Below, in pieces: positions 8,231 through 50,164 of a stretch of 64,000 nucleotides of DNA. Source of the DNA: Verrucomicrobiia bacterium (GTDB taxonomy: Bacteria > Verrucomicrobiota > Verrucomicrobiia > Limisphaerales > UBA11358); NCBI GenBank assembly GCA_036510395.1, contig DATCDZ010000152.1:4325-68324 (forward strand), given 5' to 3'. The translations under genes and the position numbers were made by a program. Position 1 is the stretch's first letter. Every line of letters begins with the position of its first letter. Below the pieces are notes generated by a model. That model was not told where the DNA came from. It did no database searches and worked only from the letters and a program-made list of their open reading frames with translations.

Positions 8231-8301
8231 AATGGCCGTTTCAGAAACCGGAGCGAAACGAAACGGATGAGCAGAGGAGCGCGGTTTTTGAAACGGCCAT
8301 T
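8231..8301. repeat. 20-bp inverted repeat (19/20 match) with a 31-nt spacer
   Basis: AATGGCCGTTTCAGAAACCG (8231-8250) pairs with CGGTTTTTGAAACGGCCATT (8282-8301). Confidence 0.8.
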
Positions 8302-8332
8302 GAGTGCGTCACCGGATAGGTTTGAATCACGC

Positions 8333-8408
8333 GGCGTTTAGTCTGTCCGGTTTCCGAGAGCCGCAGGAAAGCCGAACAGTCTAAACGCCGTTGCCGCATA
8401 TTGTGGAT
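8333..8408 (+). other. Candidate oriT core: imperfect hairpin followed by a nic-like GCATATTGTGGAT
   Basis: GGCGTTTAGTCTGT (8333-8346) pairs with ACAGTCTAAACGCC (8376-8389) at 13/14 positions. GCATATTGTGGAT lies 6 nt downstream (8396-8408). As I recall, the R388/TrwC nic region is GGTGCGTATTGTCT/AT just 3' of a hairpin. The resemblance is weak. Confidence 0.3.
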
Positions 8409-8464
8409 TGTGTTTCAGAGCGATTCTGAATTCAAAAATTCAGGCAGGCTCGCCGATGGGTTAC

Positions 8465-8943
8465 GGGAAAGGATGGGGCAAGCGGTGACTGAATTCTGCC
8501 GGAAATCCAAGCCAAAAGCCTTTTTCATTTTGTTCCAAAATGGAACGAAGCTGCCCAGGCAATCTGGAAAAATACTGCCAATGGTGACATTCGTTTTTGC
8601 AAAGTTTGCAGGAGCGGAGCCGGTTGTTCCGCGAGAATGTCAGCCGAAAAAATAAACCAACGTGACGCATGAAAAATAAATCCGAAAAATGGCGGCAGAC
8701 TGGCCGATGGTTTTTGGGGAAAGGACGGAGCCATGAACGGCCAAATTCCGCCGGGAATGAATGCCGCAAGTGCTTTTCACTTTGTTTCATTTTGAAACAA
8801 TTACCACTGCCTGTTCTGCCAGAATGGTTCCATGAATTTATATTTCGACCAAGTTGCGGGAAAGGATTGGGTCAGGCGGTCGTTGAATTCCGCCGTGAAT
8901 CCAGACCGGAAAAAAAATTCATTTTGTTCATGGGGTGAACAAA
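8465..8943 (+). repeat. Three dispersed ~85-nt U-repeats (8465-8546, 8717-8800, 8858-8943), each ending in a hairpin
   Basis: Shared skeleton: GGGAAAGGA..GG...AATTC.GCCG.GAAT...TTTCA.TTTGTT-hairpin. The terminal hairpins are GTTCC-aaaat-GGAAC, (TT)GTTTC-atttt-GAAAC(AA) and (TTT)GTTCA-tgggg-TGAAC(AAA). Confidence 0.8.
8608..8710 (+). repeat. V-repeat copy 1 (paralogue of the leader and first codons of the 9183 gene)
   Basis: GCAGGAGCGGAGCCGGTTGTTCCGCGAGAATGTCAGCCGAAAAAATAAACC..GTGACGCATGAAAAATAAA...CTGGCCGATGG aligns with 9117-9222. It contains the hairpin GCGGA-n9-TCCGC followed by a GAGAAT -10-like hexamer. Confidence 0.75.
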
Positions 8944-9116
8944 GCGGCTTCGCCAATCCGATAAGATGCCGCCAAATAACAGCCATGAAAAATGACAGCC
9001 AAAAAAATCATTGTGGCAAAAGTGGTGGCTTCATCCTGTGTGTTTTCCGCACTGGATCGCCCGCAAACTCTGCCAAAGTGGGAGCCGTTGGGAAAATTCG
9101 AGTTGTGCAATGGGCT

Positions 9117-9222
9117 GCACAAGCGGAGCCGGAATTTCCGCTAGAATGTCTGCCGGAAACATAAATAAACCGTAGGTGACGTATGAATAATGAAGCGCCA
9201 AACAACCTCGCTGGCCGGATGG
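9117..9222 (+). repeat. V-repeat copy 2 = probable promoter/leader and 5' end of the 9183 gene
   Basis: GCACAAGCGGAGCCGGAATTTCCGCTAGAATGTCTGCCGGAAACATAAATAAACC..GTGACGTATGAATAATGAA...CTGGCCGGATGG. It has the same GCGGA-n9-TCCGC hairpin and a TAGAAT hexamer. Confidence 0.75.
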
Positions 9223-9605
9223 AAAAAGAGATTCGCGTCAAGCCTGGAAAAAATAAAGAAGCAGCAGAACAGCGAGCCAGTGCCGTTTATGTGCTCAACA
9301 ACGAACTCAAGGCGATCTTGAATCTGAACCGGCCACCGGCGCGTTTGAACACGGCGCAGACCGCCGCCTACCTCGGCTTCAAACCGCATGACATCCCGGT
9401 GCTGGCCGCGCGGGGATTCCTCAAGCCGTTGGGCGACCCGATGCCCAACAGCGATAAATACTATGCGCGGGCAAGGGTGCTGGAACGGTTGGACGATGAG
9501 GAATGGCTGTCACTGGCAACAGCGGCCTTGAGCCAGCATTGGCAGAAGAAAAACGCCAGCAAAACCAAAAAGCGGAATGGTCATGCCCGGCCAGTTAAAA
9601 AATGA
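9183..9605 (+). CDS. Helix-turn-helix (excisionase/MerR-like) protein, putative relaxosome accessory factor
   Basis: LNTAQTAAYLGFKPHDIPVLAARGFLKPLG resembles excisionase-family HTH_17 proteins. It lies immediately upstream of the relaxase on the same strand and has a basic C-terminal tail. Confidence 0.6.
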   Translation: MNNEAPNNLAGRMEKEIRVKPGKNKEAAEQRASAVYVLNNELKAILNLNRPPARLNTAQTAAYLGFKPHDIPVLAARGFLKPLGDPMPNSDKYYARARVLERLDDEEWLSLATAALSQHWQKKNASKTKKRNGHARPVKK

Positions 9606-9630
9606 ACTATTCGGTTTAACCACGACCAAC

Positions 9631-9649
9631 TCGCCCACTACCCGCTAAC
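9631..9649 (+). promoter_or_regulatory. Element-specific conserved box upstream of the relaxase gene
   Basis: TCGCCCACTACCCGCTAAC ends 33 nt before ATG 9683. It has the same orientation relative to its gene as the copies at 7751 and 14060. A degenerate upstream half-site is TTAACCACGACC. Confidence 0.55.
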
Positions 9650-9682
9650 GCGGGAAATGCGTTTTGATTTACGCTGGCGGCC

Positions 9683-12649: not shown

Positions 12650-12656
12650 ACGGCGG

Positions 12657-12950
12657 TCAGTCCAGCGGGTAATCGTCGTGGTCATAATAGTCCGGCGGTT
12701 CCCACAACGGCGGGGCAAACGGTGGTGGTGGTGGCGTTCCCGGCAATTGAATGAAAATCGCTGGCCGGACGTGGGACATGGGTTTTCCTCTCTTTGGTCG
12801 CAATGCGCCGCATAATACCCACACCAAAAGAGCCAGCAAAAGATAGATGGCTCCGATGAGAAAATAGAGCGCATGGTCGTGAACGAATCCGTCAAGGTGT
12901 TTCAATCCCGACGTTTCCAGTTCGAGTGCCTTAATTTGCCAAGGTTGCAT
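12657..12950 (-). CDS. Small membrane protein with a Pro-rich acidic tail (hypothetical)
   Basis: Preferred start is ATG 12950, preceded by GGAGGA (12955-12960) directly after the integrase stop. TM segment: YFLIGAIYLLLALLVWVLCGAL. Tail: PPPPPFAPPLWEPPDYYDHDDYPLD. The track start at 13007 would overlap the integrase. Confidence 0.5.
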   Translation of the reverse strand: MQPWQIKALELETSGLKHLDGFVHDHALYFLIGAIYLLLALLVWVLCGALRPKRGKPMSHVRPAIFIQLPGTPPPPPFAPPLWEPPDYYDHDDYPLD

Positions 12951-12960
12951 GGTGTCCTCC

Positions 12961-14034
12961 TTATGCGGCAACGGCTTTCGCCGCTGGTTCGGGGTTGTGG
13001 CTTCCAATAATCACCTTCTGTTGCCGCTCGTATTCGCTCAAGGAAGGCATTTCCACCGGCGCTTTGCGGGAATAGGCCCGCGTCATGGCCTTGCTGTTGT
13101 GGCCAAGATTCACCTGGGCATACCGTTCGGGATAGCCCGCCGTTTTTGCCCGTTCTGCCCACGCGTAACGGTAGCTGTGCAGCGAGACGCCTTTGATGCC
13201 AAGTCCATCGCAGCGTTGTTTGAACTCCGTGGCGCGGTCACCAGAGCGCACGGTTCGCATATATGGAAACAAGGGGCCGCTCCCCGGCAAGTCGCGCAGG
13301 ATTTCCGCCATGTCTTCATCAAAACGCATGATGGCAATCGAGCCGGTCTTCTGGCGCGCATAGCTGATGACGTGGTGTTCCCAATCAACGTCCTCGGCGT
13401 TCAAGCCCGCCAGATCGGATTGCGATGCGCCCAAGTGCCACGCCAGTTTGTAGAACGCCTTGCGTTCGGGATTGTTCTCGCGGGCGACGATGGCCAGATG
13501 TTCCGCCAGCGTGATGCCGCGCTTCTCTTTGAACTCGACGGCGGGCCACTGGCGTTTCGGCACCAGCGGCCACGGCAGCCAGTTCATGTCCACGCAGAAA
13601 TTGTGCAACCGCCGGAGATAAACATTCGTCGAGACGGTTCCCATTTGCAGGACTTTCAGAATCGCTTCGCCCTTGCTTTCGATGATGACCTGCGGCAAGA
13701 GCATCGCCAGTGCCTTGTCCTTCGCGGCGGTTTTCCAGCGATGTTGATTCGCTCCCTGCTTGGTGCCAATCAACGACTCAATGGCGTTCTGCCATGTCCG
13801 CGTGGTCAAGCCCGTGTCCGAACCGGCCAGATACGCCTTGGCGATTTGCAGGTTAAGAACGGGCTGGCGTTCGGAGTTGTTCTTGGCCGCGACAACCTGC
13901 TTGGCATCGTCCTCATTGGCCGTGCCGAGACTGGTGCGCTTGCCGGTGCTGGTGTCCACGCAATAAAACTTATTGCCCCGGATACCACGACGAATTAAGC
14001 GATAACGTGTTTTCATAGTATTACGCAATCGCAA
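12961..14034 (-). CDS. int: Tyrosine recombinase / phage-type integrase
   Basis: C-terminal catalytic region: GVSLHSYRYAWAERA...NLGHNSKAMTRAYSR. The likely true start is ATG 14016 (MKTRYRLIRRG), since 14034 is a TTG. It lies 155 nt from the tRNA-Cys 3' end. Confidence 0.9.
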   Translation of the reverse strand: MRLRNTMKTRYRLIRRGIRGNKFYCVDTSTGKRTSLGTANEDDAKQVVAAKNNSERQPVLNLQIAKAYLAGSDTGLTTRTWQNAIESLIGTKQGANQHRWKTAAKDKALAMLLPQVIIESKGEAILKVLQMGTVSTNVYLRRLHNFCVDMNWLPWPLVPKRQWPAVEFKEKRGITLAEHLAIVARENNPERKAFYKLAWHLGASQSDLAGLNAEDVDWEHHVISYARQKTGSIAIMRFDEDMAEILRDLPGSGPLFPYMRTVRSGDRATEFKQRCDGLGIKGVSLHSYRYAWAERAKTAGYPERYAQVNLGHNSKAMTRAYSRKAPVEMPSLSEYERQQKVIIGSHNPEPAAKAVAA

Positions 14035-14059
14035 GAATAACTGAAGCCGGTTCCGCAGA

Positions 14060-14082
14060 GTTAGCGAGTAGTGGGCGGGTTA
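14060..14082 (-). promoter_or_regulatory. Element-specific conserved box upstream of the integrase
   Basis: GTTAGCGAGTAGTGGGCGGGTTA is identical over 23 nt to 7751-7773. In the gene direction it is TAACCCGCCCACTACTCGCTAAC, ending 43 nt before ATG 14016. Confidence 0.55.
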
Positions 14083-14188: not shown

Positions 14189-14263
14189 TGGAGGCGGGAG
14201 TCGGAATCGAACCGACGAATGCAGCTTTTGCAGAGCCGTGCCTTACCACTTGGCTACCCCGCC
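14189..14263 (-). tRNA. tRNA-Cys (anticodon GCA), CCA encoded
   Basis: The reverse complement GGCGGGGTAGCCAAGTGGTAAGGCACGGCTCTGCAAAAGCTGCATTCGTCGGTTCGATTCCGACTCCCGCCTCCA folds by hand into a cloverleaf. It has a 7-bp acceptor stem, anticodon loop CUGCAAA and T-arm GTCGG-TTCGATT-CCGAC. Confidence 0.93.
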
Positions 14264-17097: not shown

Positions 17098-17129
17098 AAG
17101 GCGTAATTTTCATCCGTGGCTGAATAAAC

Positions 17130-17192
17130 TCATCGCTCATCGCCCGCCAGTTTCCGCGCCGCCAGGATTTTTTGCGACGGCTTGCAAATCCA
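17130..17192 (-). pseudogene. Displaced duplicate of the last ~20 codons of tgt
   Basis: The minus-strand reading WICKPSQKILAARKLAGDER* compares with the tgt C-terminus NYKPSQKILAARKAASNER*. The DNA core GCCGCCAGGATTTTTTGCGA(C/A)GGCTTG is shared with 17788-17850. Confidence 0.7.
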
Positions 17193-17222: not shown

Positions 17223-17465
17223 ATGAAAGCGATTGCAAATCAAAAAAGTGTGTTGAGCGGACACATCGTGGCCGACCGGGAAATTCTCGGCGGCGAACCG
17301 GTGTTTCGCGGGACGCGCGTGCCAGTCGCGTCGCTGTTCGAGCATCTGGAAAGCGATTGTTTGCTGGACGAATTTCTTGAAAACTTTCCGACCGTCAGCC
17401 GCGCCGCAGCGGTGGCCGTGCTCATGGGCGCGCAGGAATTGACGCTCGAAAGGGCGCGTCGGTGA
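17223..17465 (+). CDS. DUF433-type antitoxin-like protein
   Basis: HIVADREILGGEPVFRGTRVPVASLFEHLESDCLLDEFLENFPTVS is the typical DUF433 pattern. Its stop overlaps the GTG of the next ORF (GTGA). Confidence 0.75.
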   Translation: MKAIANQKSVLSGHIVADREILGGEPVFRGTRVPVASLFEHLESDCLLDEFLENFPTVSRAAAVAVLMGAQELTLERARR

Positions 17466-17784
17466 AAGTGCTGGTGGACGAGTGCGTGCCGTTGAAACTG
17501 GTGCGTCTGCTCACCAGCCACAATTTCAGCACGCGCAGCAAAAAGGCTGGGATGGTTTCAGCAATGGAAAACTTCTCGCGCAAGCCGAGCCGGAATTTGA
17601 TCTGTTCCTGACCAGTGACCGCAACTTGCAGTATCAGCAAAATCTCAAAGGCCGGAAAATTGCGATCCTGCTTTTGTCCACAAATCACTGGCCGACTTTG
17701 AAAAAACACGTTGAATTGGTCCAAGCTGCGCTGGACAAAATTTCTTCGGGCGAATTTGCGCGCGTAGAAATTCCGAAGAATTAA
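17462..17784 (+). pseudogene. DUF5615 (PIN-like) toxin-like gene with a -1 frame break at an A5 run
   Basis: Frame A from GTG 17462 reads VKVLVDECVPLKLVRLLTSHNFSTRSKK. Frame B continues GWDGFSNGKLLAQAEPEFDLFLTSDRNLQYQQNLKGRKIAILLL. The join lies at AAAAA 17540-17544, and one extra A would restore a single ORF. Confidence 0.7.
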
Positions 17785-17787
17785 ATT

Positions 17788-18933
17788 TCATCGTTCATTA
17801 CTCGCCGCTTTCCTTGCCGCCAGGATTTTTTGCGAAGGCTTGTAGTTGGCGATGAAGTTGCGGTGGTAATCCGCGAACGTCCCCGCCGCGATCGCCGCGC
17901 GCACTTCGGTCATCACTTTCAGATACAGGTGCGAGTTGTGGACGCTCACCATGCGCAGGCCGAGGATTTCATTCGCGCGCAGCAGATGGCGCAGATACGC
18001 GCGCGTGAACGTGCGGCACGCATAACATTCGCAGCCTTCCTCGATCGGGCCGAAATCCGTCTTGTAACTCGCGCCCTTGAGACCGAACGCGCCAGTGTGC
18101 GTGACCGCCGTGCCGGTGCGCGCGATGCGCGTGGGCAGCACGCAGTCGAACATGTCCACGCCGCGCGCGATCAGCTCGACCATCTGCGCGGGCGTGCCGA
18201 GACCCATCGCGTAACGCGCTTTTTTTTCCGGCAAAAATGGGACGGCCAGTTCAATCGCCTTGAACATTTCCGGTTCCGGTTCGCCGACGCTCACGCCGCC
18301 GATGGCGTAACCGTCAAATTCCATTTCCACGAGCGCCTTGGCGCATTGCTCGCGCAACGCGGCGTCGCTGCCGCCCTGGACGATGCCGAAAACTTTCTGG
18401 CCGTCGGCGCGCGGCTGCTCGCGACATTCGCGCGCCCAGCGGATGGTGCGTTCGACGGCGAGGCGCTGCTCCTTCGCGGGCGCGTCGTGCGGCGGACATT
18501 CGTCGAACACCATCGCGATGTCCGAGCCGAGCACGCGCTGGATTTCCATGGATTCCTTCGGCCCGATAAATAAAAGCGAGCCGTCAAGGTGGGAACGGAA
18601 TTCCACGCCGTGTTCTTTTACTTTGCGAATTTTTGCAAGGCTGAAAACCTGGAAGCCGCCGCTGTCGGTGAGAATCGGCTTTTCCCAATTCATGAATTTG
18701 TGCAGGCCGCCGGCGGCGCGAATGATGTCGAGTCCGGGACGGAGGTTCAGATGGTAAGTGTTGCCGAGAATGATCTGCGTGCCCATCTCGTGAAGTTCAC
18801 GCGGGTCGAGCGCCTTGACGCTGGCCTGCGTGCCGACGGGCATGAACACGGGCGTCTCGATGACACCGCGCGTCGTGGTCAATCTGCCGAGGCGCGCTTT
18901 GGTATGCGAGTCGGTTTTGAGGAGTTCAAACAT
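17788..18933 (-). CDS. tgt: tRNA-guanine transglycosylase (queuine tRNA-ribosyltransferase)
   Basis: ARLGRLTTTRGVIETPVFMPVGTQASVKAL...ILGNTYHL...LTDSGGFQVFSL...CECYACRTFTRAYLRHL. Confidence 0.93.
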   Translation of the reverse strand: MFELLKTDSHTKARLGRLTTTRGVIETPVFMPVGTQASVKALDPRELHEMGTQIILGNTYHLNLRPGLDIIRAAGGLHKFMNWEKPILTDSGGFQVFSLAKIRKVKEHGVEFRSHLDGSLLFIGPKESMEIQRVLGSDIAMVFDECPPHDAPAKEQRLAVERTIRWARECREQPRADGQKVFGIVQGGSDAALREQCAKALVEMEFDGYAIGGVSVGEPEPEMFKAIELAVPFLPEKKARYAMGLGTPAQMVELIARGVDMFDCVLPTRIARTGTAVTHTGAFGLKGASYKTDFGPIEEGCECYACRTFTRAYLRHLLRANEILGLRMVSVHNSHLYLKVMTEVRAAIAAGTFADYHRNFIANYKPSQKILAARKAASNER

Positions 18934-18934: not shown

Positions 18935-19327
18935 TCAGTAATTCAAAACCGGCACGCCGCCCCAGCGAATGATTTTTTTATCGCGCGTGACCAGCGTGAG
19001 CCGGTGAACAATCGCCGCAGCAACGATCAATTGATCGGCAGGATCAGTCGTGGTCAAACCGGCGGCGGCAAGTTTGCAGGATTCGTCGGCGATTTCAGGT
19101 GTGATTGCCAAAATGATTAGATTTTCCGAAAGCGAATCGTGCATCCATTGCAACGGTGAACGGTCAAGAGGCAATTTTTGATATTCAACAGCCTTGCAGA
19201 TTTCCCAAAACGAAATATCTAATAGAAACAAAGGTGTTTCAGGTTCCATTAAAAATTTATGACGCAAAGAAATTTTGTCAGCGGATGAAATAGTTTTCTA
19301 TGCATTGGCATCAAGCAGATGGCTCAT
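18935..19327 (-). pseudogene. VapC-like PIN-domain toxin with an in-frame TAG at codon 10
   Basis: ATG 19327 overlaps the antitoxin stop (ATGA). The reading is MSHLLDANA-TAG(19300-19298)-KTISSADKISLRHKFLMEPETPLFLLDISFWEI...DPADQLIVAAAIVHRLTLVTRDKKI in a single frame. Confidence 0.7.
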
Positions 19328-19581
19328 TGCGTGGCTTTCCATTTCACATCCGGCCTGCCCAAATCTTTCAAAATGGAGCCGCGCGTCGCGCCATAAAGCG
19401 CGCCGGTTTGATTTTTTTTGGAAAGGATGTATTCCGATTTGCCGCGACGAATCGTGACTTTCTCGCCACGGTCGGCGGCGGAAAAAACCCGTTCTGGCGA
19501 ACGATAAAGAGCTGTCGCGGTTGCAGTCATCAGATAAACAGTATGATTGAACTGTTGCCGTGTCAATTGCAAGTCCGGCAA
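19324..19581 (-). CDS. Phd/YefM-like antitoxin
   Basis: TATALYRSPERVFSAADRGEKVTIRRGKSEYILS. The probable start is the internal ATG 19530 (MTATATAL). Confidence 0.6.
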   Translation of the reverse strand: MPDLQLTRQQFNHTVYLMTATATALYRSPERVFSAADRGEKVTIRRGKSEYILSKKNQTGALYGATRGSILKDLGRPDVKWKATQ

Positions 19582-19622
19582 AACGAAACATCCACGAACA
19601 GATCGGCGGCGATTTTTTCAAA

Positions 19623-33318: not shown

Positions 33319-34338
33319 TCACGTCGTCGCTAAAATATTTTCCAGCGCGGCAAAGACTTGTTCCGGTGAAATTCCGGCCATGCAATGGCGCGGGCTGGTG
33401 CAAAAATGGGAGGCGTCGTCGCAGGTGCATTTTGGTCTCTGGATGACGCGGTGTTGCGCGCCGACTGGACGCCAGCGTGTCGGCGACGTGGATCCGAACA
33501 GCCCGATGGTCGGCACGCCCAGCCCGGCGGCGAAATGCATCGGGCCGGTGTCGTTGGAAATGCAGGCGCTGGCGCGCTTGATTACAGCCAGCAGCGTGGC
33601 GAGATTCGTGGGCGGCAGCGCGATGATTTCAGGAACAAGATTTTTCAACTCCTGCAACAGCGCCATTTCGCGCGGATTGGCGCCCATGGTGAAAATTAAT
33701 TTGAAGCCGGCGGTTGTGGCCATCCGATGAAACGCCGCCCAGTGGCCGGACGGCCATTCTTTTTTCGCCATATTTGAACCGATGTGGCAAATGACGGCTC
33801 CATCCGGCAAATTTTTTCCCGCCGCCGCCGCATCCCATTCGGAACTGGTGTGCAATCGGATGTTGATGTCCGATTCAGGCGGCGGCTGGATGCCCCAAGG
33901 CGACAAGAAATCCAGCAGACGCGTAGTTTCATGGCAATCCTGGCGGGTGAGCGGCGGGACATATTGAGTGCAACAAAAACGGCGGCCAACAAAACCTTTT
34001 TCGTAAAGCGGAGCAAGCCTTTCGCGCGCGCCGCACAGGAGGCTCATGATCGCCCCGCGATCGTTGCCGCCAAAATCAACCGAACGGTCAAACCGTTCCG
34101 CCCGCAACGCGCGGATGACCGGCCAGCTCTGTTTGAAAAGTGCGCGTCCGCGAACGCGTGGGATCAGCCAAAGCCGTGTGATGGAGGGTTCGTTTTGCAA
34201 AAGCGGCCCGACCGATTCCGGCGCGAGGACGTGCAGCGCGCAACCGGGATAATGCCGCCGGATCGCCTGAAGCGCGGGAATCATCATCACCGCATCGCCC
34301 AAGGATTTGAACTGGATGGCGAGGATTTTTTCGGGCAT
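33319..34338 (-). CDS. Glycosyltransferase family 9 (heptosyltransferase-like)
   Basis: ILAIQFKSLGDAVMMIPALQAIRRHYP...NDTGPMHFAAGLGVPTIGLFG. Confidence 0.85.
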   Translation of the reverse strand: MPEKILAIQFKSLGDAVMMIPALQAIRRHYPGCALHVLAPESVGPLLQNEPSITRLWLIPRVRGRALFKQSWPVIRALRAERFDRSVDFGGNDRGAIMSLLCGARERLAPLYEKGFVGRRFCCTQYVPPLTRQDCHETTRLLDFLSPWGIQPPPESDINIRLHTSSEWDAAAAGKNLPDGAVICHIGSNMAKKEWPSGHWAAFHRMATTAGFKLIFTMGANPREMALLQELKNLVPEIIALPPTNLATLLAVIKRASACISNDTGPMHFAAGLGVPTIGLFGSTSPTRWRPVGAQHRVIQRPKCTCDDASHFCTSPRHCMAGISPEQVFAALENILATT

Positions 34339-34414
34339 TTGGAAAATGAATTTAAATTATTGCCCAAGACGAAAAAAACAGCCGGTCGAAACCCGGCTGG
34401 TGATTCCAAAAAAG

Positions 34415-35878
34415 CTATTTCTTTTTTTTGAAGTCTTTGCCAAGACGCGCAGCCAGTTTTTTATGCGGCTTGAAACGCGCGTCAATCACCGGACCCAAAA
34501 TGGATGCAAACTTGCGCCGCGACGCGTTCAATTCCCAAAGCAAAGACGGACGGATGAACCCGATCTCGACCGCGTCCTGCACTTCTTTCCATGTGACATA
34601 GCCGGAGTCCAGCGCCTCGCGCAAATGGCCGGCCCAAAGCGCGCCGTTGCGGTTCTTCCGGCTTACCCACGGCTGCGTGTGCATGTCCGTGTAATGGATC
34701 AAATTTGTTTTGCCGGGCGCATATTCTTCCAGTGAATTCCATTCCGGCGGCAACGCGGCGCGGACGGTGTCTGCCGGTTCCAGGCAAACTTCCTTCATCA
34801 ATTGATCGTAATTATAGCGGCCTTCGTCCAGCCCGCGCACGATTTCGTTCAAGTCCCATTTCAAGCGCGAACAATCCAGCAAAAGCACGGCGAATTGTTT
34901 CGGGCGTTTCGGATCGGACGTGGCGCAATGCAGCACGGTCGCGCCGTTAAAAGGCCGGTCCCATAAATCCTGGAAATTCCGCAGCACGAGCATGTCTGCA
35001 TCCAGATAAACCGCGCGTCCGCGATAGCCAGCCAGTTTTGGAATGGCAAAACGACTGAATGAAAAACCTGTTCGCGGCTGGTTTTTCGGATCTTTGGGCA
35101 TCGGAGTTTTCACATGAAGCATATGGTCGAACACGACCGGCAGCGCGCAATGTTTCAAAACGGAAAATTCCAGCACGTGCGCGCCGAGCAACTGGCTTTC
35201 GTCCGTGCCGATGAAAATGCGCACGGGCGTTTCGCTCGTGAGCGGCGCAAAATCAATCCCGTGCCGCCGCACCGTCGAGATCATTCCGTCAAACTGGAGG
35301 TCGAAAGTATTGTGGCCGTTGGCGAGGCGCGTTTTGTCGTCGAGGTCTTTGAATTGCGGCGCGTAGGCGCTGCCGCCGTCCACGCCGAGCGTGCGGATGG
35401 ATTTCGCGCCGGCCGCCGCCAGCAGGCTGATCATCACTTCCGCGCTGAAATAGCCATTTGGAATTTTTGGCGAACCGGTCTCCTGCTGTTCCGAGGAGGC
35501 AAAGTTATACCACACAAGCCGGTTCTCGCGGTCGAGCTTTTTGAGAATTGGAAATTCGTCGAAAAAAGTTTCGAGCGGACGTTTTGCCGCCTCGTGCTTG
35601 ACGTGCGGATAGCGAGGCATCAAAAGAAATCTGGCGTTGCGGTCAATCGCCTCCGCGCAATCGCCCACGACATCAATGTCAATGACGCTGGCCACTTCAA
35701 CGGGCATTTCGCGGACGACGTGGTTGAGCGATAATTTGCGAAACGCGCCCAAGTCAAATTCATTCCTGCGATCCAGTGACAGGCCTTTGCCCAAGACAAG
35801 CCATGAGCCTTTGCCACCGTTGATTTCCGACCACCACTGTTTTAATTCTTTCATAATTGGTTTGCCGCTCAAATTCAA
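34415..35878 (-). CDS. Two-domain protein: unknown N-terminal domain + GT8-like glycosyltransferase
   Basis: The C-terminal half has RIFIGTDESQ...AVYLDADMLV (DxD)...NLIHYTDMHTQPW. I recognise no family for the N-terminal ~215 aa. Confidence 0.65.
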   Translation of the reverse strand: MNLSGKPIMKELKQWWSEINGGKGSWLVLGKGLSLDRRNEFDLGAFRKLSLNHVVREMPVEVASVIDIDVVGDCAEAIDRNARFLLMPRYPHVKHEAAKRPLETFFDEFPILKKLDRENRLVWYNFASSEQQETGSPKIPNGYFSAEVMISLLAAAGAKSIRTLGVDGGSAYAPQFKDLDDKTRLANGHNTFDLQFDGMISTVRRHGIDFAPLTSETPVRIFIGTDESQLLGAHVLEFSVLKHCALPVVFDHMLHVKTPMPKDPKNQPRTGFSFSRFAIPKLAGYRGRAVYLDADMLVLRNFQDLWDRPFNGATVLHCATSDPKRPKQFAVLLLDCSRLKWDLNEIVRGLDEGRYNYDQLMKEVCLEPADTVRAALPPEWNSLEEYAPGKTNLIHYTDMHTQPWVSRKNRNGALWAGHLREALDSGYVTWKEVQDAVEIGFIRPSLLWELNASRRKFASILGPVIDARFKPHKKLAARLGKDFKKKK

Positions 35879-35993
35879 GCTGCTGCCTGCTGCCGCGCAA
35901 TGACATTTGATCTACCCCTGAAAATTCTGCAATTCTTGCCCGACGGATCACGGCGCTTAATGCCAACTCCGGCCAAATTAGGCAAGGCGATAA

Positions 35994-37067
35994 ATGATTG
36001 CGCTTCGCCGGCTGCCTTTGATTTTTTGCTCGACTTGTTTCCTTCAAGCATCCAAAAGTGGCGTTTTAATTGTGATCGGTTGGAAGCCATTTTCGTGGGA
36101 TTCAAATACTGCCAGCGCGCGCCTGCGCTGCTTCGTGCCATGCGCGCAGCTCAAGCAGGCCGGCTGGCCTTGCGAGCTTTTTGAAATTTCTCGTTTGAAC
36201 GATTACAAGTTGGTTGTCTTCCAAAAAGCCTACACAACGGAAGACATAGGGCTGGCCCGGCAACTCAAGGCGCGCAAGGCAAAAATCGTCTTCGACCTGT
36301 GCGACAATCATTTTTATCGAATGACCCACCAGCCTAATCGCGCCGAAGAACTCCACCGCCTTGAACAGATGGTTGAACTGGCCGACATGGTTTCGGTTTC
36401 GACATCCGAACTGGCGAAACTGATCCCTCAAAAAACGACGGCCGTGATTGACGACGCCATGGAAGATTTTTCCGAAAACGGATTGCGAAATTTTTTCATC
36501 CGTAAATTCGGCCTTTGGCATCATCGTTTTTCCAAGTGCGTGCGGCTGGTCTGGTTTGGAACCGCAGGATCCGAAGATCCGCCGTTCGGTTTAATAAACC
36601 TTGCGGCGATCGTCTCGGAACTGAACGAGTTGAATGTTTCAATGCCCGTTTCCTTGACAGTCCTGAGCAATTCCAAAGACAAATTTGAGAAGCAGATTCG
36701 CGATGTAAAATTTCCGGTGCGCTTTTACAAATGGAACAGGGATTCCTTCCGCGCCATTTTTCAACAGCATGACGTTTGCCTGCTGCCGATTTCCAAAAAT
36801 CCTTTCACTGTTTGCAAAACCAACAATCGTTTGTTGCTGTCGCTGCGCTTGGGCATTCCGGTCGTGGCGGATAAAATCCCAAGCTACGAAGAATTTTCCG
36901 GTTTTGTTCCCTTCGGTGACTGGCAAAAGAATATCCGCGCTTACATTGAAAATCCTGAATCAGGCCGCGCGTCTGTCAAAAATGCCCAGGCTTATATCCA
37001 AAACAAGTATCACGATAAGCGCACGGTCCAACAATGGTCTGATCTGCTCGGTTCAATGCTGTATTGA
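35994..37067 (+). CDS. Putative glycosyltransferase (GT1/GT4-like C-terminal half)
   Basis: The only + strand gene of the cluster. ...HDVCLLPISKNPFTVCKTNNRLLLSLRLGIPVVADKIPSYEEF. The start is uncertain. Confidence 0.5.
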   Translation: MIALRRLPLIFCSTCFLQASKSGVLIVIGWKPFSWDSNTASARLRCFVPCAQLKQAGWPCELFEISRLNDYKLVVFQKAYTTEDIGLARQLKARKAKIVFDLCDNHFYRMTHQPNRAEELHRLEQMVELADMVSVSTSELAKLIPQKTTAVIDDAMEDFSENGLRNFFIRKFGLWHHRFSKCVRLVWFGTAGSEDPPFGLINLAAIVSELNELNVSMPVSLTVLSNSKDKFEKQIRDVKFPVRFYKWNRDSFRAIFQQHDVCLLPISKNPFTVCKTNNRLLLSLRLGIPVVADKIPSYEEFSGFVPFGDWQKNIRAYIENPESGRASVKNAQAYIQNKYHDKRTVQQWSDLLGSMLY

Positions 37068-37077
37068 TCGTCACTGG

Positions 37078-37872
37078 TCAGATCGGGCTTTTTTGTGAAG
37101 GCCGGTCCAGTCCCATTTTTCTCGAAATGTCGCCGTTATCAATGAAATCGGGCTGGTTCAATTGCCTGCACAAACCGGCGAATTCTTCCGCGCAGTCGCC
37201 GATGCGCAGAAACGGCGTCGCGCTCAACAAATTGATTTTGCGTTCGCGCAACGCCTCCCGGATTTCGCGCAAGCCTTCGTAATATTCACGGTAGCGCACA
37301 TTCGGATCGTTGCCGGCCCATAAAGTGTGCTGTGCGTGCGCGTGATGATTGTCCGCCAGCGGGGCATTGTCGCAACCGACGAGGATGATGTTTTTCGCGC
37401 CCATGTTCGTCGCCAGATTCACCGCCGACTGCGAAATCGAACTCCAAAGATAAAGATAATTTTCAACCGGTCTGCGAAGCCAGTCCAGATTGCGCCCGGC
37501 CACGCTGGCCTGCCCTTGGATCAGGCTCTCCTTGTTCTCGGGCCGCACAAAATCAAAATAGTAGAATCGCGCTGCGTGGGTTTCGGCAAATTTTCTTTGT
37601 TTGGGCGTGGTGAACTTGATGTATTTTGTGATCCACACGATTTCTTCGCGTGATTCGCCCGTCAGAAATTCAGGGATGTTCAGTTCGGGGCGAATCGTGA
37701 TGCCGTATTTGACGGGCAACATTTGCCACGCCTGGTTCAGCCCGATGGTTATTTTGTCCTCCAGAAACGAAAGCGGGAAGACGCGCAAACTCGTGCCTGT
37801 GCCGACCACATATATGTCCGCGCCCTTGTGCGCACCGTAGAGTTGGCTGACGTAATTCATGGCACGAATCAA
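37078..37872 (-). CDS. DUF115/MptE-like (motility-accessory-factor-like) putative glycosyltransferase
   Basis: GADIYVVGTGTSL...AKNIILVGCD. Confidence 0.5.
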   Translation of the reverse strand: MIRAMNYVSQLYGAHKGADIYVVGTGTSLRVFPLSFLEDKITIGLNQAWQMLPVKYGITIRPELNIPEFLTGESREEIVWITKYIKFTTPKQRKFAETHAARFYYFDFVRPENKESLIQGQASVAGRNLDWLRRPVENYLYLWSSISQSAVNLATNMGAKNIILVGCDNAPLADNHHAHAQHTLWAGNDPNVRYREYYEGLREIREALRERKINLLSATPFLRIGDCAEEFAGLCRQLNQPDFIDNGDISRKMGLDRPSQKSPI

Positions 37873-38750
37873 CTTTTCTGCAAAAGATCAAGCACATCAG
37901 GCCGCACATGTTGTTTTTGCATTTCGTCCTTCAAGAAATCCTCCGTGAAAACTTTGTTGTCCAGACATTCCTTCATCAGATTGATGCAAAAACGCTCCTG
38001 ATTTGAATCGGGATGCTTGAGGTATTTTTCTTCCGTCTGCACCGGCGCTTTTTTGGCGGGCGAAAGCCAGCTCCAAAAGCCGCGCCTGGCCGGTGCGGTG
38101 CGGTAATTCATGTTGTAATCCACAGGCAAACCGGTTTTCCACGGCTGCGTCGAGCGCTCTGTGTTGTGCAGCAATTTGGTTTTTTCGTTGAGCGTGTCGA
38201 AATGGTTCCATTCCTCTTCCAATTCCAAAATGGTGTTCGGGTCTTCGTCGCGCAAAAAAATCCAGTCGCCGTAATCCAGCTTGTGCGCGAACAACCGGTC
38301 AATTTTTTTGTTCCAGTCCCAATGCGGCAGTTGCCCGCAATCCAGCAGCATGGCGCTGGTCGCGTAATAAGGTTTTCCATTGTCCGATTTGATGAGGCGG
38401 CAGACGATTTTTTTTCCGCCCATGTCGCGGTTCAGCAATTCCCAAACGTCAGCCACGGCGAAAATGTCCGGGTCGAGCACCAGTGCGCGTCCTTGAAAAC
38501 CCATTTCCTGCGGCGGCAGAAAACGGATCAGGCTGAACGATTGCAGGTCGCGGTTGTTCCAGGTCACGACGGCGCCTTTGCGGATGTAAGTCTCGCTCTG
38601 ACGTTTGGTCAGGTGCGGATAATCTACCAGATTCAGGATACGCACGTCAAACTTCTCGTTGTTCCGCGAGGCTTTGCGAAGCGAATACTCCGACATTTTC
38701 GCGCCGATCATTTGAACGGGATTCGTATGAATGAACACGGTCGGTTTCAT
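37869..38750 (-). CDS. Nucleotide-diphospho-sugar transferase (GT8-like)
   Basis: RALVLDPDIF...LLHNTERSTQPW parallels the GT8-like domain of 34415-35878. Confidence 0.55.
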   Translation of the reverse strand: MKPTVFIHTNPVQMIGAKMSEYSLRKASRNNEKFDVRILNLVDYPHLTKRQSETYIRKGAVVTWNNRDLQSFSLIRFLPPQEMGFQGRALVLDPDIFAVADVWELLNRDMGGKKIVCRLIKSDNGKPYYATSAMLLDCGQLPHWDWNKKIDRLFAHKLDYGDWIFLRDEDPNTILELEEEWNHFDTLNEKTKLLHNTERSTQPWKTGLPVDYNMNYRTAPARRGFWSWLSPAKKAPVQTEEKYLKHPDSNQERFCINLMKECLDNKVFTEDFLKDEMQKQHVRPDVLDLLQKS

Positions 38751-38782
38751 GGATTGACTTTATTCGGCGTCTTCCGCCGCCG

Positions 38783-38842
38783 TCAATGCTTTTGCGCGAT
38801 GACGTAAGAAAATTTATTTTGGCGGCGATGAAGCAACGCCAG
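38783..38842 (-). pseudogene. Duplicated, internally deleted copy of the 3' end of methyltransferase gene 39547-40515
   Basis: TCAATGCTTTTGCGCGATGACGTAAGAAAATTTATTTTGGCGGCGATGAAGCAACGCCAG aligns with 39547-39621 except for indels. Confidence 0.7.
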
Positions 38843-38843
38843 A

Positions 38844-39533
38844 TCAAGCGGTCTTGGGCTTTTTGGTGCCGACGAGGTTGATCATGCTGGGCACCAGCAA
38901 ATATGGGGCGCGAGTGAACATTCGTGGCGGCGGCCCTATCGGCGAGACTGACGGCGGCGGACGGACTTTCGATTCCTCAGACGTTATAGATCCGCGATAG
39001 ACAACGAATTGATTTGGATCTTCATCAAAACCGGCACTTTCTCCGAAGGCATTGGAGGTGATGCTGTTCAATTCTTTTGCAAAATCAAAATCCGGGAAAA
39101 GGTATTTGAGTCCGGCCGGCGTGAACCGCCAGAAATCATTCGGATATCCATGAAACCGCCATGTAAAAGGCGCGGAAAGAAAGAGCGTGCCGCCCGGTTT
39201 GGTGATACGCGTCAGATTCTGCGCGAACTTGAATATGTTGTCCACATGCTCAATGACGCTGCAACAGATGATCGCCCCGAACTCCCGCCCCAGCTTCTCA
39301 CGAACAACTGAAAAATCCGCCGTGAAATCAACCACCATGTCCACATTGTTCCCCTCCGACATATCCACGCCAACATATTCCAAGCCGTCGAACAGGCTTC
39401 GATAACCAATCGCCGATTTGGTGGCGTAATGGCGCGAACCGATTTCGAGGATTGGAGGATTTGCCAGGTGTCGGTTGGTTCGCACCCATTCGAGTTGGTT
39501 TTTATCGCCCATCGCGCTGTTTGTTTTCCACAA
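38844..39533 (-). CDS. Class I SAM-dependent methyltransferase
   Basis: ILEIGSRHY...VGVDM...FGAIICCSVIEHV...PGGTLFLSAP. Confidence 0.75.
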   Translation of the reverse strand: MWKTNSAMGDKNQLEWVRTNRHLANPPILEIGSRHYATKSAIGYRSLFDGLEYVGVDMSEGNNVDMVVDFTADFSVVREKLGREFGAIICCSVIEHVDNIFKFAQNLTRITKPGGTLFLSAPFTWRFHGYPNDFWRFTPAGLKYLFPDFDFAKELNSITSNAFGESAGFDEDPNQFVVYRGSITSEESKVRPPPSVSPIGPPPRMFTRAPYLLVPSMINLVGTKKPKTA

Positions 39534-39546
39534 CCCTGCATCCGTG

Positions 39547-40515
39547 TCAACACTTTTGCGCGATGACGTGATAACGGTCGCATAAATTTATTTTGGCGGC
39601 GATGAAGCATGGCAGCGCCAGCACGGCGACGCCAAGCGGCGCGTCAACGAGACTGGGGATTTTTTCGTGCTTCATCCAGCCCATATCTGCGAGCAAAAAT
39701 CCCGCGCTGCGAGCGACGTCCTTCGTGACGAATTCCGGAAAAATTTCAACGGATTGAAAACCGGCCTTCTTCAGGCAATCCGCGACGAGCTGCGGCGAAA
39801 ATAAAATGATGTGCCGCGGACAATCCAAGCCCAGCCAGCGGCTGCCGAAAAGCCGGCTGCCCAAACCTGCGGGGTTAGGCGTGGCCAGATGCAACCTGCC
39901 GCCGGGCTTCAATTTACGGAATAAATGTTGCAGCACGTCGGCCGGATCGTAAAGGTGTTCGATGACATGATTCATCCGCACCAGCGTCAGCGATTCGTCA
40001 GGAATTTCCCGCCACAATTTTTCGCCGGCGATTAAACCGCCATGCCCGGCAGCCTTGACTTTTTCGACAACGGATTCGGAAAAATCCACGCCGATGGTCC
40101 GCCAGCCTTTGTGTTTTGCTGTGCCAAGAAATTTTTCCGAGCCGCAGCCATAGTCGAGAAAAACGGAATATCCACGCGGCGGTTGATAAAGCGCTTTCAG
40201 GCGATGCCGCAGCTTGCGCGTTCCGGAGTTCAACAATTTGCCAGTCGCCTTGCGAAAAAATCCCGGCGTGGCCGTTTGTTTCCATTTTTGATATGGCCCG
40301 TAGTCGGACGGATAAAATTTTGAGATCTCCGCCGGGGCTGGCGGCGCGGCCTGGAAACACGCGCCGCACGCGCCGCAGCGCAAATAAATAAATTCATCAT
40401 CGGTGATGCGCAGCAGGCGGTCGCGACCGCGCGTCCAGAAAGAACAGTCGCAGGCGTGGCATACCGGGCAGCAGGATTGAGAAGAAAACGGCAGTTTATT
40501 CATAGATGGATTCAT
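39547..40515 (-). CDS. SAM-dependent methyltransferase with N-terminal Cys4 zinc ribbon
   Basis: CPVCHACDC...CGACGACF; FLDYGCGSEKF...VGVDFS...RMNHVIEHLYDP...PGGRLHLATPN. Confidence 0.75.
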   Translation of the reverse strand: MNPSMNKLPFSSQSCCPVCHACDCSFWTRGRDRLLRITDDEFIYLRCGACGACFQAAPPAPAEISKFYPSDYGPYQKWKQTATPGFFRKATGKLLNSGTRKLRHRLKALYQPPRGYSVFLDYGCGSEKFLGTAKHKGWRTIGVDFSESVVEKVKAAGHGGLIAGEKLWREIPDESLTLVRMNHVIEHLYDPADVLQHLFRKLKPGGRLHLATPNPAGLGSRLFGSRWLGLDCPRHIILFSPQLVADCLKKAGFQSVEIFPEFVTKDVARSAGFLLADMGWMKHEKIPSLVDAPLGVAVLALPCFIAAKINLCDRYHVIAQKC

Positions 40516-41508
40516 CCGCTTGCGCGCATTTATTCAAAGGGACAGTTTGTGGGCGCGACATATTTCCTGAGGAACTCCACAATTTTTTACATCGGTTAAT
40601 TTTGTGCTTGATCCAGAAGATGGCATGCCAGCCTGAACCCAGCATCTGCTTCATTTCCGCAAGGGTGGCGCTCGTTTTCGCGGCGGGCAATCTTCGGAGC
40701 GCATGGATTTGGGCAAAGAGCATCTGTCGTGTGGTCATTTTCCGCAGCCATGGTTTGGCGAAATATTCTTCCAGCAATTGTAAGCTCTCGTTTTTCGTGT
40801 GGCCTCTTTTTTGATTGAATCTGGTCTGCTGCATTGCGTGCTGGCGGAACGCGCAGAGCGTCTCGGCGAGATAGCCGAATTTTCCGTTCTCCAGCAGATG
40901 AAACCACATCTCCATATCCACAAACTGGCTGTAACGCGAGTCATATCCGCGCGCGTCCTGCGGATTTCGGAACATCACGAGCGTCGGTTCACCAATCAAA
41001 TTTGCAGGACGCTCCAGGCAGCGCACGATGATTTTTTTTCCGTCCCACACTCCATCTTGAAAATAGTTCCGAGTCTCAATCACCCGCGAGTGCGCATCAA
41101 TCACTTCCGAAGCGGACGCGACCAGTGAGATGGCAGGATCGCTTTCCATCAGGCCGGCCATTTGGCTGATGGCCGAAGATGAGAGCAGTTTGTCATCGCC
41201 GAAAATAAATTTAACGTATTCTCCGCGCGCCTGTGACAGGCACCAGTTCCAGTTTTGCACCATGCCGAGATTCGCCGGATGAACGTGAAAGCGAATGCGG
41301 TTGTCCTTGGCGGCGTAGCGGGCAATTACCTCGGCGGAATTGTCCGTCGAACAGTCATCGCTGATGAGCAATTCGAAATCCTGATAATCCTGTCCGAGGA
41401 TGGATTCAATCGCCTCCGGCAAATACCGCGCATAATTATATGTCGGAATCAGGACGCTGGCTTTTGGGGCTATCATAGGACGTTTCTCGTTGGACAAATG
41501 CGCGTTCG

Positions 41509-41512
<4 letters not shown>
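40496..41512 (-). CDS. Glycosyltransferase family 2
   Basis: ASVLIPTYNYARYLPEAIESILGQDYQDFELLISDDCSTDNS. Confidence 0.85.
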
Positions 41513-43332
<1,820 letters not shown>

Positions 43333-43386
43333 GGTTTCGGCAATTATGCGCGCACACGCCGAGCAAGGCGAGCAGTTTGTCGGCCT

Positions 43387-44268
43387 TCAGCGGACAAGGC
43401 GGTAATGTTTTTTGTTGAACCGCAGCCCGAACCATTGCTCGAGTCTCAACATGACGCGGTGTTTTTTTTCGCGCGAAGTCAGCTTGTGATCCGGGTCGGC
43501 CTGAAAAATCCCGTCCGCCTTTGGCAGCCATTTCTGCACGGCTTTTGGATGCGTGCCTTCAAATAATTTGAGCGTGGCCGGATCAATTTGCGCGTAGTCA
43601 ACGGACGCCGAAGGCTTCAAATTTTTCTCCCAGTATTTTCCGATGGCGGAAACTTTCAGGTTCATCTGTGCCTCGCTCCGCGCCCAGCCGTAATGATAAA
43701 CCGTCGCGCCCGTGTGCGCCGCGCGCGGATGGCGCGATTTTTTGTGTCCGGCAAGCACGTTGAAAAAAAGCGCCTCGGACGACCACGCGGGAATCGTATT
43801 GCGGATGATCCGCACCTCGCTGCGATACCAGCGCGGCGACCACGCGAAGGTGTTCACGTTGCCGTAAAAATGCAGGTAGTCGAACGCCAGCGCCTCGACA
43901 CGTCCGTCATCCAGATATTTTTCCATCGCCGCGCGGATTTTCGGCAGGTCATTTTCGTGGATGACCTCGTCGGCTTCGAGGTAAAACGCCCAGTCGCCAG
44001 TGCAATTGAACAGCGCGATGGATTTTTGCTGGCCATAGACAAAACCGCCCACGCTGTAATCGCCGCGCAGCCGTTCGTTCCATTGCGTCGGAATAATGCG
44101 GATTTTCGGATCGCCAATTTCCAGCAGCAATTTTTCCGTGTCATCGTCACACGGGCCGAGCGCGACGACAAATTCATCCACCAGCGGCAAAATGGAGCGG
44201 ATGGATTCGGCGAACGGATAGCCGAGCTTCCGCCCGTTCCGCAAAAATGTGAAGCCGCTGATTTTCAT
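43387..44268 (-). CDS. Glycosyltransferase family 2-like
   Basis: ISGFTFLRNGRKLGYPFAESIRSILPLVDEFVVALGPCDDDT...YLEADEV. Confidence 0.65.
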   Translation of the reverse strand: MKISGFTFLRNGRKLGYPFAESIRSILPLVDEFVVALGPCDDDTEKLLLEIGDPKIRIIPTQWNERLRGDYSVGGFVYGQQKSIALFNCTGDWAFYLEADEVIHENDLPKIRAAMEKYLDDGRVEALAFDYLHFYGNVNTFAWSPRWYRSEVRIIRNTIPAWSSEALFFNVLAGHKKSRHPRAAHTGATVYHYGWARSEAQMNLKVSAIGKYWEKNLKPSASVDYAQIDPATLKLFEGTHPKAVQKWLPKADGIFQADPDHKLTSREKKHRVMLRLEQWFGLRFNKKHYRLVR

Positions 44269-44293
44269 TCGCAGGTTTTTTTCATCGCGCGGT

Positions 44294-45109
44294 TCAATGG
44301 TAGTAATAACGGATTTTCCCCGCCACGCGCAATTCCAGCAGCGTGTGTCCGTGCCACAGCCGCTCGAAAATTTTTCGCCAGTTGCCGGCCGTTTTCCGGC
44401 GGATCCGGTTCCAGCGCCGCTGCGCCCAGTTGATTTTCCATTTCCTGCGAAAATATCCGACCGTTTCCGCGCGCGTCGAGCCGCGCGCAGTTTTGAGAGC
44501 CTTCTGCGTCACGCTGCCAAAATGATGGATGTAGGTGCAGCCGCTGACGGCCATCTTGATGCCCGCTTTTTGCGCCCGCCAGAAAAAATCCGTGTCCTCG
44601 TTCCCGCCCTTGTTGAAATTCTCGTCAAAATTCCCAATCACCTCGAACACACTTCGCGCGACCATGAAGCAAACGCCAGAGGCGGTTCCGCGCCGTTGCA
44701 CGGCCTTCATGCTGGCGACATATTCGTGGGCGTAAAGGGACAGGTCATAATCCAGATCGCCCTCGCCCATGCCCGGACTTGCGATGTCCACGCCGTTTTT
44801 TTCCGCGAAATTCAAGAGGCTTTCCAGCCAGCCGGCCGGCACGACCGTGTCATTGTTGAGAAAAACCGTCCACTTCGTTTTGCCGGCCTCAAAACCCTGG
44901 TTCCACGCGGCTGAACACGCACGGTTTTCAGGATTGTGAATCACGCACAACTTCGGTCGCGTCGCCAGAAATTCCGCCGTCCCGTCCGTCGAGGCGTTGT
45001 TGATGACGACAATCATCGAATCGTTGCAGCCCGCCGCGTTGAGGCTTTCAAGGCACTGCCGCGTGAAATGCAGTTGGTTAAAGACAGGAATGACGATGGT
45101 GACGTCCAT
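44294..45109 (-). CDS. Glycosyltransferase family 2
   Basis: VTIVIPVFNQLHFTRQCLESL...VINNASTDGT...FLNNDTVV. Confidence 0.8.
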   Translation of the reverse strand: MDVTIVIPVFNQLHFTRQCLESLNAAGCNDSMIVVINNASTDGTAEFLATRPKLCVIHNPENRACSAAWNQGFEAGKTKWTVFLNNDTVVPAGWLESLLNFAEKNGVDIASPGMGEGDLDYDLSLYAHEYVASMKAVQRRGTASGVCFMVARSVFEVIGNFDENFNKGGNEDTDFFWRAQKAGIKMAVSGCTYIHHFGSVTQKALKTARGSTRAETVGYFRRKWKINWAQRRWNRIRRKTAGNWRKIFERLWHGHTLLELRVAGKIRYYYH

Positions 45110-50052: not shown

Positions 50053-50154
50053 TTTTTGATTTACAATTTATGATTTATGATTTGGCAAAAGTCGCCCGCG
50101 CTTGGAAAAAATCATCAATCGTAAATCATCAATCGTAAATCATCAATCGTAAAT
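50053..50154. repeat. Long hairpin of heptamer arrays (TTTNNRA x5 facing 3 perfect 14-nt units AATCATCAATCGTA)
   Basis: Left arm TTTTTGA TTTACAA TTTATGA TTTATGA TTTGGCA. The right arm is 50110-50151, three exact 14-mers that read TTTACGA/TTGATGA on the other strand. Confidence 0.85.
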
Positions 50155-50164
50155 TGTTTGTCGT

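Follow-up and report, generated by a model that had tools for sequence, protein, structure and literature searches.

A decayed methyltransferase 3' end in a Verrucomicrobiia surface-glycan cluster as the probable scar of 3'-end displacement

The end of a methyltransferase gene occurs twice in a surface-glycan cluster of a Verrucomicrobiia bacterium (assembly GCA_036510395.1), within the stretch of 64,000 nucleotides (nt) of contig DATCDZ010000152.1 (positions 4,325 to 68,324) that was analysed as a whole and is referred to here as the window. Five genes of this cluster are considered: A, B, C and D, which are transcribed in that order from the minus strand, and E, which lies on the plus strand and is convergent on D. 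Copy 1 is the intact coding 3' end of the methyltransferase gene A, while copy 2 is a decayed, non-coding A-type 3' end, or remnant, situated between a second methyltransferase gene, B, and gene C. The reading favoured here, with a probability of roughly 0.6, is that copy 2 is the non-coding scar of a 3'-end displacement in which two cluster layouts were spliced. Displacement of this type, for which homology-facilitated illegitimate recombination (HFIR) or a circular intermediate has been proposed, is a known kind of event and involves no new mobile element or cassette system.

The repeated gene end and the cluster layouts of relatives

Copy 1 (39547–39621, minus strand) covers the stop codon of A and the 25 codons before it (..LALPCFIAAKINLCDRYHVIAQKC*). 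As a preliminary description of this DNA had stated, these last 75 nt recur with small deletions at 38783–38842 on the same strand, where copy 2 matches copy 1 at 59 of 65 aligned positions (91%) in a gapped alignment. Copy 2 is frameshifted and has undergone two deletions, of about 5–6 nt and 10 nt, with a TGA kept at the stop position. It begins one base past the TGA of B (38844–38846), immediately downstream of that gene as had been reported, and its pseudo-stop precedes the ATG of gene C (38750) by 32 nt; B is indeed bracketed by direct repeats derived from the A terminus. The two copies share exact blocks of 26 nt (38810–38835, equivalent to 39584–39609) and 17 nt, each found only twice in the window against shuffle expectations of 0.00 and 0.03, respectively, and the repeat is therefore not a dispersed intergenic one. 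Local alignment of the A 3' end to the downstream 4 kb gives a score of 36.5, the maximum for shuffled queries being 11. No gene is called in the copy 2 region in any assembly. Across the region, six contigs obtained from different samples and with different assemblers show 100% identity, and both copies are present in every one of them, which excludes an assembly artefact.

The nearest database relatives of A are 62% identical to it, with none lying between 62% and 100%, so that comparisons are restricted to distant relatives (loci designated by L numbers). Two native layouts are found among them. In L001 (A 62% identical, spacer of 62 nt), L055 (57%, 68 nt) and L057 (55%, 76 nt), A is directly followed by C, with D coming after C in L001 and L055, and convergent E after D in L055. 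These three loci lack B at that position and, in support of the preliminary description, possess a single A-end copy each; in L001 a B homologue (57–60% identical) is located after E on the opposite strand. The second layout is that of L056 (A 62% identical), where A is followed by B and then by convergent E, with neither C–D nor a remnant. The B gene of L056, directly after A, is the closest known homologue of the window gene (72% identical), and its ATG lies 34 nt past the ancestral A stop position, the same offset as in the window. The A–B spacers of the two loci are equal in length and identical at 21 of 34 bases, with a GTGGAAAAyAAA core. As separate observations on these loci, a 1-nt insertion near the end of the L056 A gene (1190–1232) causes the ancestral stop to be read through for nine extra codons, and the L055 homologue of C (2954–3840) matches in two frames (2954–3073 and 3067–3837), as a frameshifted pseudogene or a sequencing error would.

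Since the junction of A stop, 34-nt spacer and B ATG is common to the window and L056, it is older than the split of those lineages, and A and B constitute a pre-existing unit. The remnant is of a different age. The 26-nt stretch common to copies 1 and 2, TGCTTCATCGCCGCCAAAATAAATT, is absent from every orthologue compared, and the orthologous A ends are 69–78% identical to copy 1. With its window-specific codons and its 91% identity to the A end of its own genome, copy 2 must be recent, and the lack of the 26-nt stretch in the orthologues makes it far younger than the A–B junction. The proposal made in the preliminary description, that a 690-nt single-gene cassette had been inserted with duplication of its target, is not supported, given a shared A–B junction and a younger remnant. 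Judged by its sequence, the window looks like an L056-type left part (A, spacer and B) joined to an L055-type right part (A end, C, D and convergent E) from about codon 298 of A.

Gene A (39547–40515, minus strand) encodes a protein with a Zn-ribbon and a class I S-adenosylmethionine (SAM) methyltransferase domain (Pfam Methyltransf_23, E=1.4e-20). The version chosen by the gene callers has 318 amino acids (aa) and is identical to P0001, annotated as from a Verrucomicrobiae bacterium metagenome-assembled genome, and the C-terminal peptide ..LPC....DRYH.IAQKC* is kept in the orthologues. Gene B (minus strand) had been placed at 38844–39533 (690 nt). Its stop end stands, while its start is most likely the ATG at 39512 rather than the TTG at 39533 to which the open reading frame (ORF) extends, because homologues begin with MGD or MGN and a 222-aa product is called in all assemblies; the gene (38844–39512) then encodes a 222-aa class I SAM methyltransferase (Pfam Methyltransf_23, E=5e-7), and the A–B spacer (39513–39546, minus strand) is therefore 34 nt. 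Beyond the remnant, a second spacer (38751–38782, minus strand) precedes gene C (37869–38750, minus strand), which encodes a 293-aa, distantly GT8-like protein without a Pfam family. Gene D (37078–37872, minus strand), with a weak MptE-like match, travels with C, and the convergent gene E (35994–37067, plus strand, 357 aa) is the conserved right-hand neighbour in both cluster types. The five genes are flanked on both sides by glycosyltransferases of the GT2, GT8 and GT9 families and an MsbA-like ATP-binding cassette (ABC) exporter, which identifies the locus as a lipopolysaccharide (LPS) or O-antigen-type cluster.

This cluster (33319–45109) is hypervariable across relatives, and it is absent or unrecognisable in close ones: for genomes with a tgt gene 96–97% identical to that of the window, a database of 5.8 billion proteins holds no A homologue above 62%. 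Across phyla, A, B, C, D, E and GT8 are found together in shuffled orders, such as B–A–E in Cytophagales, C–D–A in Nitrospirales and three C paralogues in tandem in L038. Other homologues of B (L058, L059) occur in varied glycan contexts and are of no help regarding the event, and a metagenome scan with gene C returned relatives at 44–57% only, which are informative on gene-order diversity and not on polarity.

A parallel case at tgt and the recurrence of the pattern

The same architecture is present at tgt around a toxin-antitoxin (TA) pair, as the preliminary description had pointed out. The functional tgt 3' end (17788–17844, minus strand, tail KAASNER*) directly abuts the toxin stop codon of an inserted pair (17223–17784, plus strand) comprising a DUF433 antitoxin (17223–17465; Pfam DUF433, E=3.8e-15) and a 106-aa toxin (17464–17784). 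On the other side of the pair, the 57-nt tgt end recurs with 47 of 57 positions identical as a remnant (17130–17186, minus strand, tail KLAGDER*), which together with 22 nt of native tgt downstream flank occupies 17108–17186. Close tgt relatives exist, and this event can therefore be polarised. The remnant and flank can be aligned with the tgt end and downstream flank of L061 (tgt 96% identical in aa) over 80 nt, with 80% identity, and the sequence beyond the working tgt end shows no alignment to the native L061 flank. Being contiguous with the native flank, the remnant is the old tgt end in its original context. A DUF5615 pair found further downstream of tgt in L061 was considered as a counterpart of the window pair and discarded, as the two are unrelated.

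A multi-step history is visible in L070, whose tgt is 97% (aa) and 93.5% (nt) identical to that of the window. The order there (6001–9451) is tgt, a different TA pair (73 aa and 86 aa), a tgt remnant and the DUF433 cassette, which is split by an insertion sequence (IS) of the IS630-like type. The window TA pair has 89.9% nt identity to L070 positions 8978–9451, and the junction between tgt stop and toxin stop is also shared, with 86.6% identity over 217 nt (window 17858–17645, L070 7655–7871); at this junction, the L070 tgt end is an already displaced remnant. This tgt 3' remnant (7655–7725) begins right at the stop codon of the toxin of the 73-aa/86-aa pair (TGA followed by CTTCATC), and the 73-aa/86-aa module is a second, later insertion in front of the DUF433 cassette. 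The left boundaries of the two tgt events differ, being 57 nt and about 71 nt, respectively. In the window and in L070 alike, an Ala-type tail (KAAS[N/D]ER) adjoins the DUF433 pair, and a Leu-type tail is found in the window remnant (KLAGDER) and at the working end in L070 (KLASDER), with KLASDER also present in the closest tgt relatives. From this one codon and the shared junction, the tail variant appears to travel with the adjacent cassette. At the window junction, the cassette end (GATTTGCAAG) and tgt (CTACAAGCC) have the microhomology CAAG in common. These properties point to an incoming module of gene end plus cargo that would have recombined with the resident gene and pushed the old end back, not to site-specific insertion, and the tgt 3' end appears to be a repeated docking point for TA modules in this clade.

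Upstream of tgt, a PIN-domain gene (18935–19267, minus strand) ends 1 nt before the tgt ATG and is preceded by an 85-aa Phd/YefM-like ORF (19324–19581). The corresponding gap in L061, between a 134-aa gene and tgt, measures only 75 nt, and the PIN/Phd-YefM-like pair (18935–19620) looks like another TA insertion. No flanking duplication was detected at this pair.

The recurrence of such duplications was assessed by aligning the last 100 nt of each gene to the 4 kb downstream. A 3'-end duplicate was present for 2 of about 78 window genes, A and tgt only, and one clear case was detected in the other fetched loci (417 genes, 439 kb). In this case, the locus L049 of an unrelated soil bacterium, the final ~65 nt of a gene for a class I methyltransferase (4937–5749) recur at 7079–7142 with ~77% identity, 188 nt past the stop of a gene C homologue (6001–6891), so that C is bracketed there by the 3' end of its neighbour; the related loci L045, L048 and L051 show the same pattern. 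The pattern is therefore recurrent and not confined to this genome. The recurrent mechanism that had been suggested for this genome holds insofar as the pattern is found at both A and tgt; a special, genome-specific mechanism is not upheld, given the L049-type loci and the lack of dedicated machinery. Neither a recombinase nor terminal inverted repeats nor an attC-like site was found at the B or TA insert, and the B insert, without inverted repeats at its ends, encodes B alone. A conserved junction motif did not emerge either, since the A (75 nt) and tgt (57 nt) repeats have in common one 6-mer and one 7-mer, which is about chance by a rough hand estimate.

The sole tyrosine recombinase among the Pfam-scanned window ORFs (12961–14034, minus strand) belongs to a separate 6.3-kb integrative mobilisable element. 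This element is delimited by perfect 23-bp direct repeats (GTTAGCGAGTAGTGGGCGGGTTA) at 7751–7773 and 14060–14082, carries a TrwC relaxase-helicase (9683–12649, plus strand) in addition to the integrase, and is separated by about 107 nt from the 3' end of a tRNA-Cys gene (14189–14263, minus strand). The recombinase was considered as a cause of the duplications and rejected, as the 23-bp repeats and att core of its element are unrelated to them. Inside the element, upstream of the relaxase, a 55-nt direct repeat (8607–8661 and 9116–9170, 509 nt apart, 80% identity) may represent duplicated promoter or oriT-region sequence. Elsewhere in the window, a 14-nt tandem repeat (AAATCATCAATCGT) is present in three to four copies at 50109–50164, in an apparently intergenic position.

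Origin and possible function of the remnant

Displacement would start from the two natural layouts, A–B followed by convergent E and A–C–D followed by convergent E. A module composed of the A end, the 34-nt spacer and B would have been placed ahead of a resident unit made up of the A end, C and D. This could have occurred by homologous exchange within A combined with one illegitimate joint just past the B stop, as in HFIR, or by a single crossover with a circular intermediate (A end, spacer and B) through the A 3' end it contains. By either route, A would stay intact, the operon would gain one methyltransferase and the old A terminus would be pushed downstream, where it would decay. Both routes fit the observed product equally well, and route and direction are inferred. 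By analogy with tgt, B and an A end may have entered an A–C–D–E genome; alternatively, C–D and an A end may have entered an A–B–E genome.

Several points weigh against displacement as set out here. B and E are both closest to L056, which fits the arrival of C–D with an A end as well as the reverse, and the nearest relatives are so distant (A 55–62% identical in aa) that donor and recipient are not identifiable. Sliding-window identity of A to L001, L055, L056 and L057 gives no breakpoint signal of chimerism. Donor-type and recipient-type layouts were not found together in one population, nor was an alternative layout found in the same species, the 6–7 contigs with exact A, B, C or E proteins all having the same order. 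Microhomology at the joint of B and the remnant is weak (TCTGG versus GCTGG), and both at this locus and in L070 the remnant starts exactly at the stop of the gene that was inserted, a precision not obviously expected for random illegitimate joints. An old duplication may instead have been held similar by gene conversion, and later trimming by deletion, or selection on the remnant, may have played a part.

Among other origins, the insertion of B alone as a cassette, with a 60–75-bp target duplication made in place, is improbable. The fill-in of a long staggered break, or a replication template switch to B and back, would be possible routes, and the architecture of an insert with flanking direct repeats, seen in two cases within 64 kb, is that of such an insertion; the position of B elsewhere in the L001 cluster, on the other strand, also implies that B has moved at least once. 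Nonetheless, an A–B junction that exists without a remnant in L056, taken with the youth of the remnant, indicates that the two features do not stem from one event. At tgt, moreover, the tail variant of the working copy is linked to the cassette and not to the resident gene. The insert has no terminal inverted repeats, transposase or integrase, and the A and tgt repeats lack a significant common motif. It is likewise unlikely that copy 2 is what is left of a second full-length A paralogue (A2) in an arrangement A–B–A2–C–D, with A2 deleted save for its last 60 nt. The two internal deletions would then reflect ongoing deletional decay, and a 5' edge that abuts the B stop is expected of a deletion that extended as far as the nearest sequence under selection. 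Two A copies are present in no relative examined, however, and this origin requires an unexplained earlier duplication, amounting in effect to displacement with a longer initial remnant. As for chance similarity or an assembly artefact, no point was found in its support, and zero matches expected from shuffles, an alignment score far above the null and the agreement of the six contigs bring its likelihood close to nil.

The remnant itself is probably without function. That it has been kept as a promoter or structured 5' element of gene C, a matter of maintenance that fits any origin, is a possibility of rather low likelihood. A predicted hairpin pairs the 5' part of the remnant (38842–38821, CTGGCGTTGCTTCATCGCCGCC) with an arm in the spacer before C (38781–38765, GGCGGCGGAAGACGCCG) around a 39-nt loop; it begins 3 nt past the B stop, and the 5' edge of the remnant coincides with its base. 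The fold has a z of -2.6, the duplex reaching -30.5 kcal/mol versus -20.2 +/- 3.5 for shuffled sequences (fraction 0.007). Just upstream of C there is also a promoter-like TTGACG-18-TAAAGT (38786..38757), with the -35 hexamer contributed by the stop region of the remnant, and TTGAC over the A stop is kept in all five orthologues. Against a function, the hairpin fails to reach significance in L001 and L055 and is marginal in L057 (0.05), the orthologues offer only poor candidates for a -10 hexamer downstream of TTGACA, no Rfam match was obtained, and the internal deletions and substitutions resemble neutral decay. Neither at copy 1 nor in L056 is a hairpin significant versus shuffles; a conserved RNA structure linking the A end to the A–C spacer was accordingly rejected, the window remnant hairpin being the only significant one. 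As an observation on the A stop itself, TTGAC(A) is kept there (window 39544–39552 and 38781–38786; L001, L055, L056, L057) though the preceding codons differ, and a purine- or A-rich motif lies ~17–30 nt downstream of it. The conserved motif may be an internal promoter or another signal for the next gene; as an internal promoter it was not retained, since the -10 candidates of the orthologues are poor despite the conserved TTGAC.

If displacement is the correct reading, the scar marks the splice point of two surface-glycan cluster layouts, where a second methyltransferase was added to an LPS or O-antigen-type operon in an uncultivated Verrucomicrobiae lineage. Taken with the tgt locus, this suggests that the displacement route of polymorphic toxins also reshapes ordinary operons and sets TA pairs beside housekeeping genes, and short 3'-end remnants could serve as a marker with which to find such events and to tell the old side. 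Of the by-products of the analysis, the TA array stacked at tgt in this clade is the most notable. A more general proposal, that gene 3' ends in the clade are recurrent docking sites at which small, circulating modules of gene end plus cargo stack without an integrase, as an analogue of integrons, is a long shot; it would fit the events at tgt (at least two, in succession), the two joints out of three that fall exactly at the stop of the gene that came in, and the L049 scar beside a C homologue. Gene-end fragments that are retained might also give the displaced genes a promoter or a structured leader.

Comparison with known systems

Classical mobile elements resemble the B locus in part. Transposons and IS elements differ from it in their transposase and terminal inverted repeats, both missing here, and in their short and exact target duplications, the present one being 60–75 nt long and diverged. 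Integron cassettes are similar as promoterless single genes added in one orientation, with older entries pushed back, but attC, attI and IntI are not found here and the repeats are copies of the coding end of a neighbour; the neighbours of B are glycan genes, and A-derived sequence together with spacer makes up the only hairpin. Islands integrated at the 3' ends of tRNA and other genes also duplicate the target end as direct repeats and leave the target gene intact, and the window contains a genuine example beside tRNA-Cys (7751–14082). In contrast to these, no recombinase gene lies within or next to the B or TA insert, the flanking repeats are long and diverged, and the different boundaries of the tgt events imply that there is no fixed crossover core.

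Another likeness is found in HFIR during natural transformation, which has been demonstrated experimentally in Acinetobacter, Streptococcus pneumoniae and Pseudomonas stutzeri, in work cited in PMC5361080 and PMC3240628. In each case a homologous anchor would be combined with a joint at a few bases of microhomology, for which CAAG at tgt and perhaps CTGG next to B are the candidates here. The experimental events usually remove DNA from the recipient instead of producing a short duplication of the anchor.

In rhs loci, C-terminal displacement has been proposed to take place via circular intermediates (Jackson et al., 2009; PMC2935791). The shared features are an intact gene, followed by a new module and then by a near-identical direct-repeat fragment of the gene's own 3' region, which lacks a start codon and is decaying, with the older module behind it; repeated events give rise to arrays, as seen here at tgt in L070. 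In the present case, a glycan methyltransferase gene (and tgt) takes the place of the polymorphic toxin gene as anchor. The fragment that was displaced measures only 57–75 nt and encodes no variable toxin tip, and the incoming cargo stands apart from the anchor as a gene in its own right (B, or a TA pair) rather than a new C-terminal domain with its immunity gene.

The effector-immunity modules of the Vibrio cholerae type VI secretion system (T6SS) undergo sequential displacement, which has been attributed to HFIR (Kirchberger et al., 2017; PMC5361080). There too, a conserved upstream gene serves as the homologous anchor and the non-homologous end is joined illegitimately, while the resident genes behind it are preserved further downstream, in some cases together with what is left of the 3' end of the displaced gene. 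The loci differ in that no immunity logic for keeping the old module is evident here, and in that donor and recipient types are not found in one species. What displacement leaves behind in such systems can be recognised at both A and tgt. A fragment of the gene's 3' end lies in direct orientation downstream of the newly adjacent gene and is contiguous with the native follower (A–C in L001, L055 and L057; the tgt flank in L061), and the incoming module is native elsewhere, as A, 34 nt and B in L056 and as the junction of tgt end and toxin in L070.

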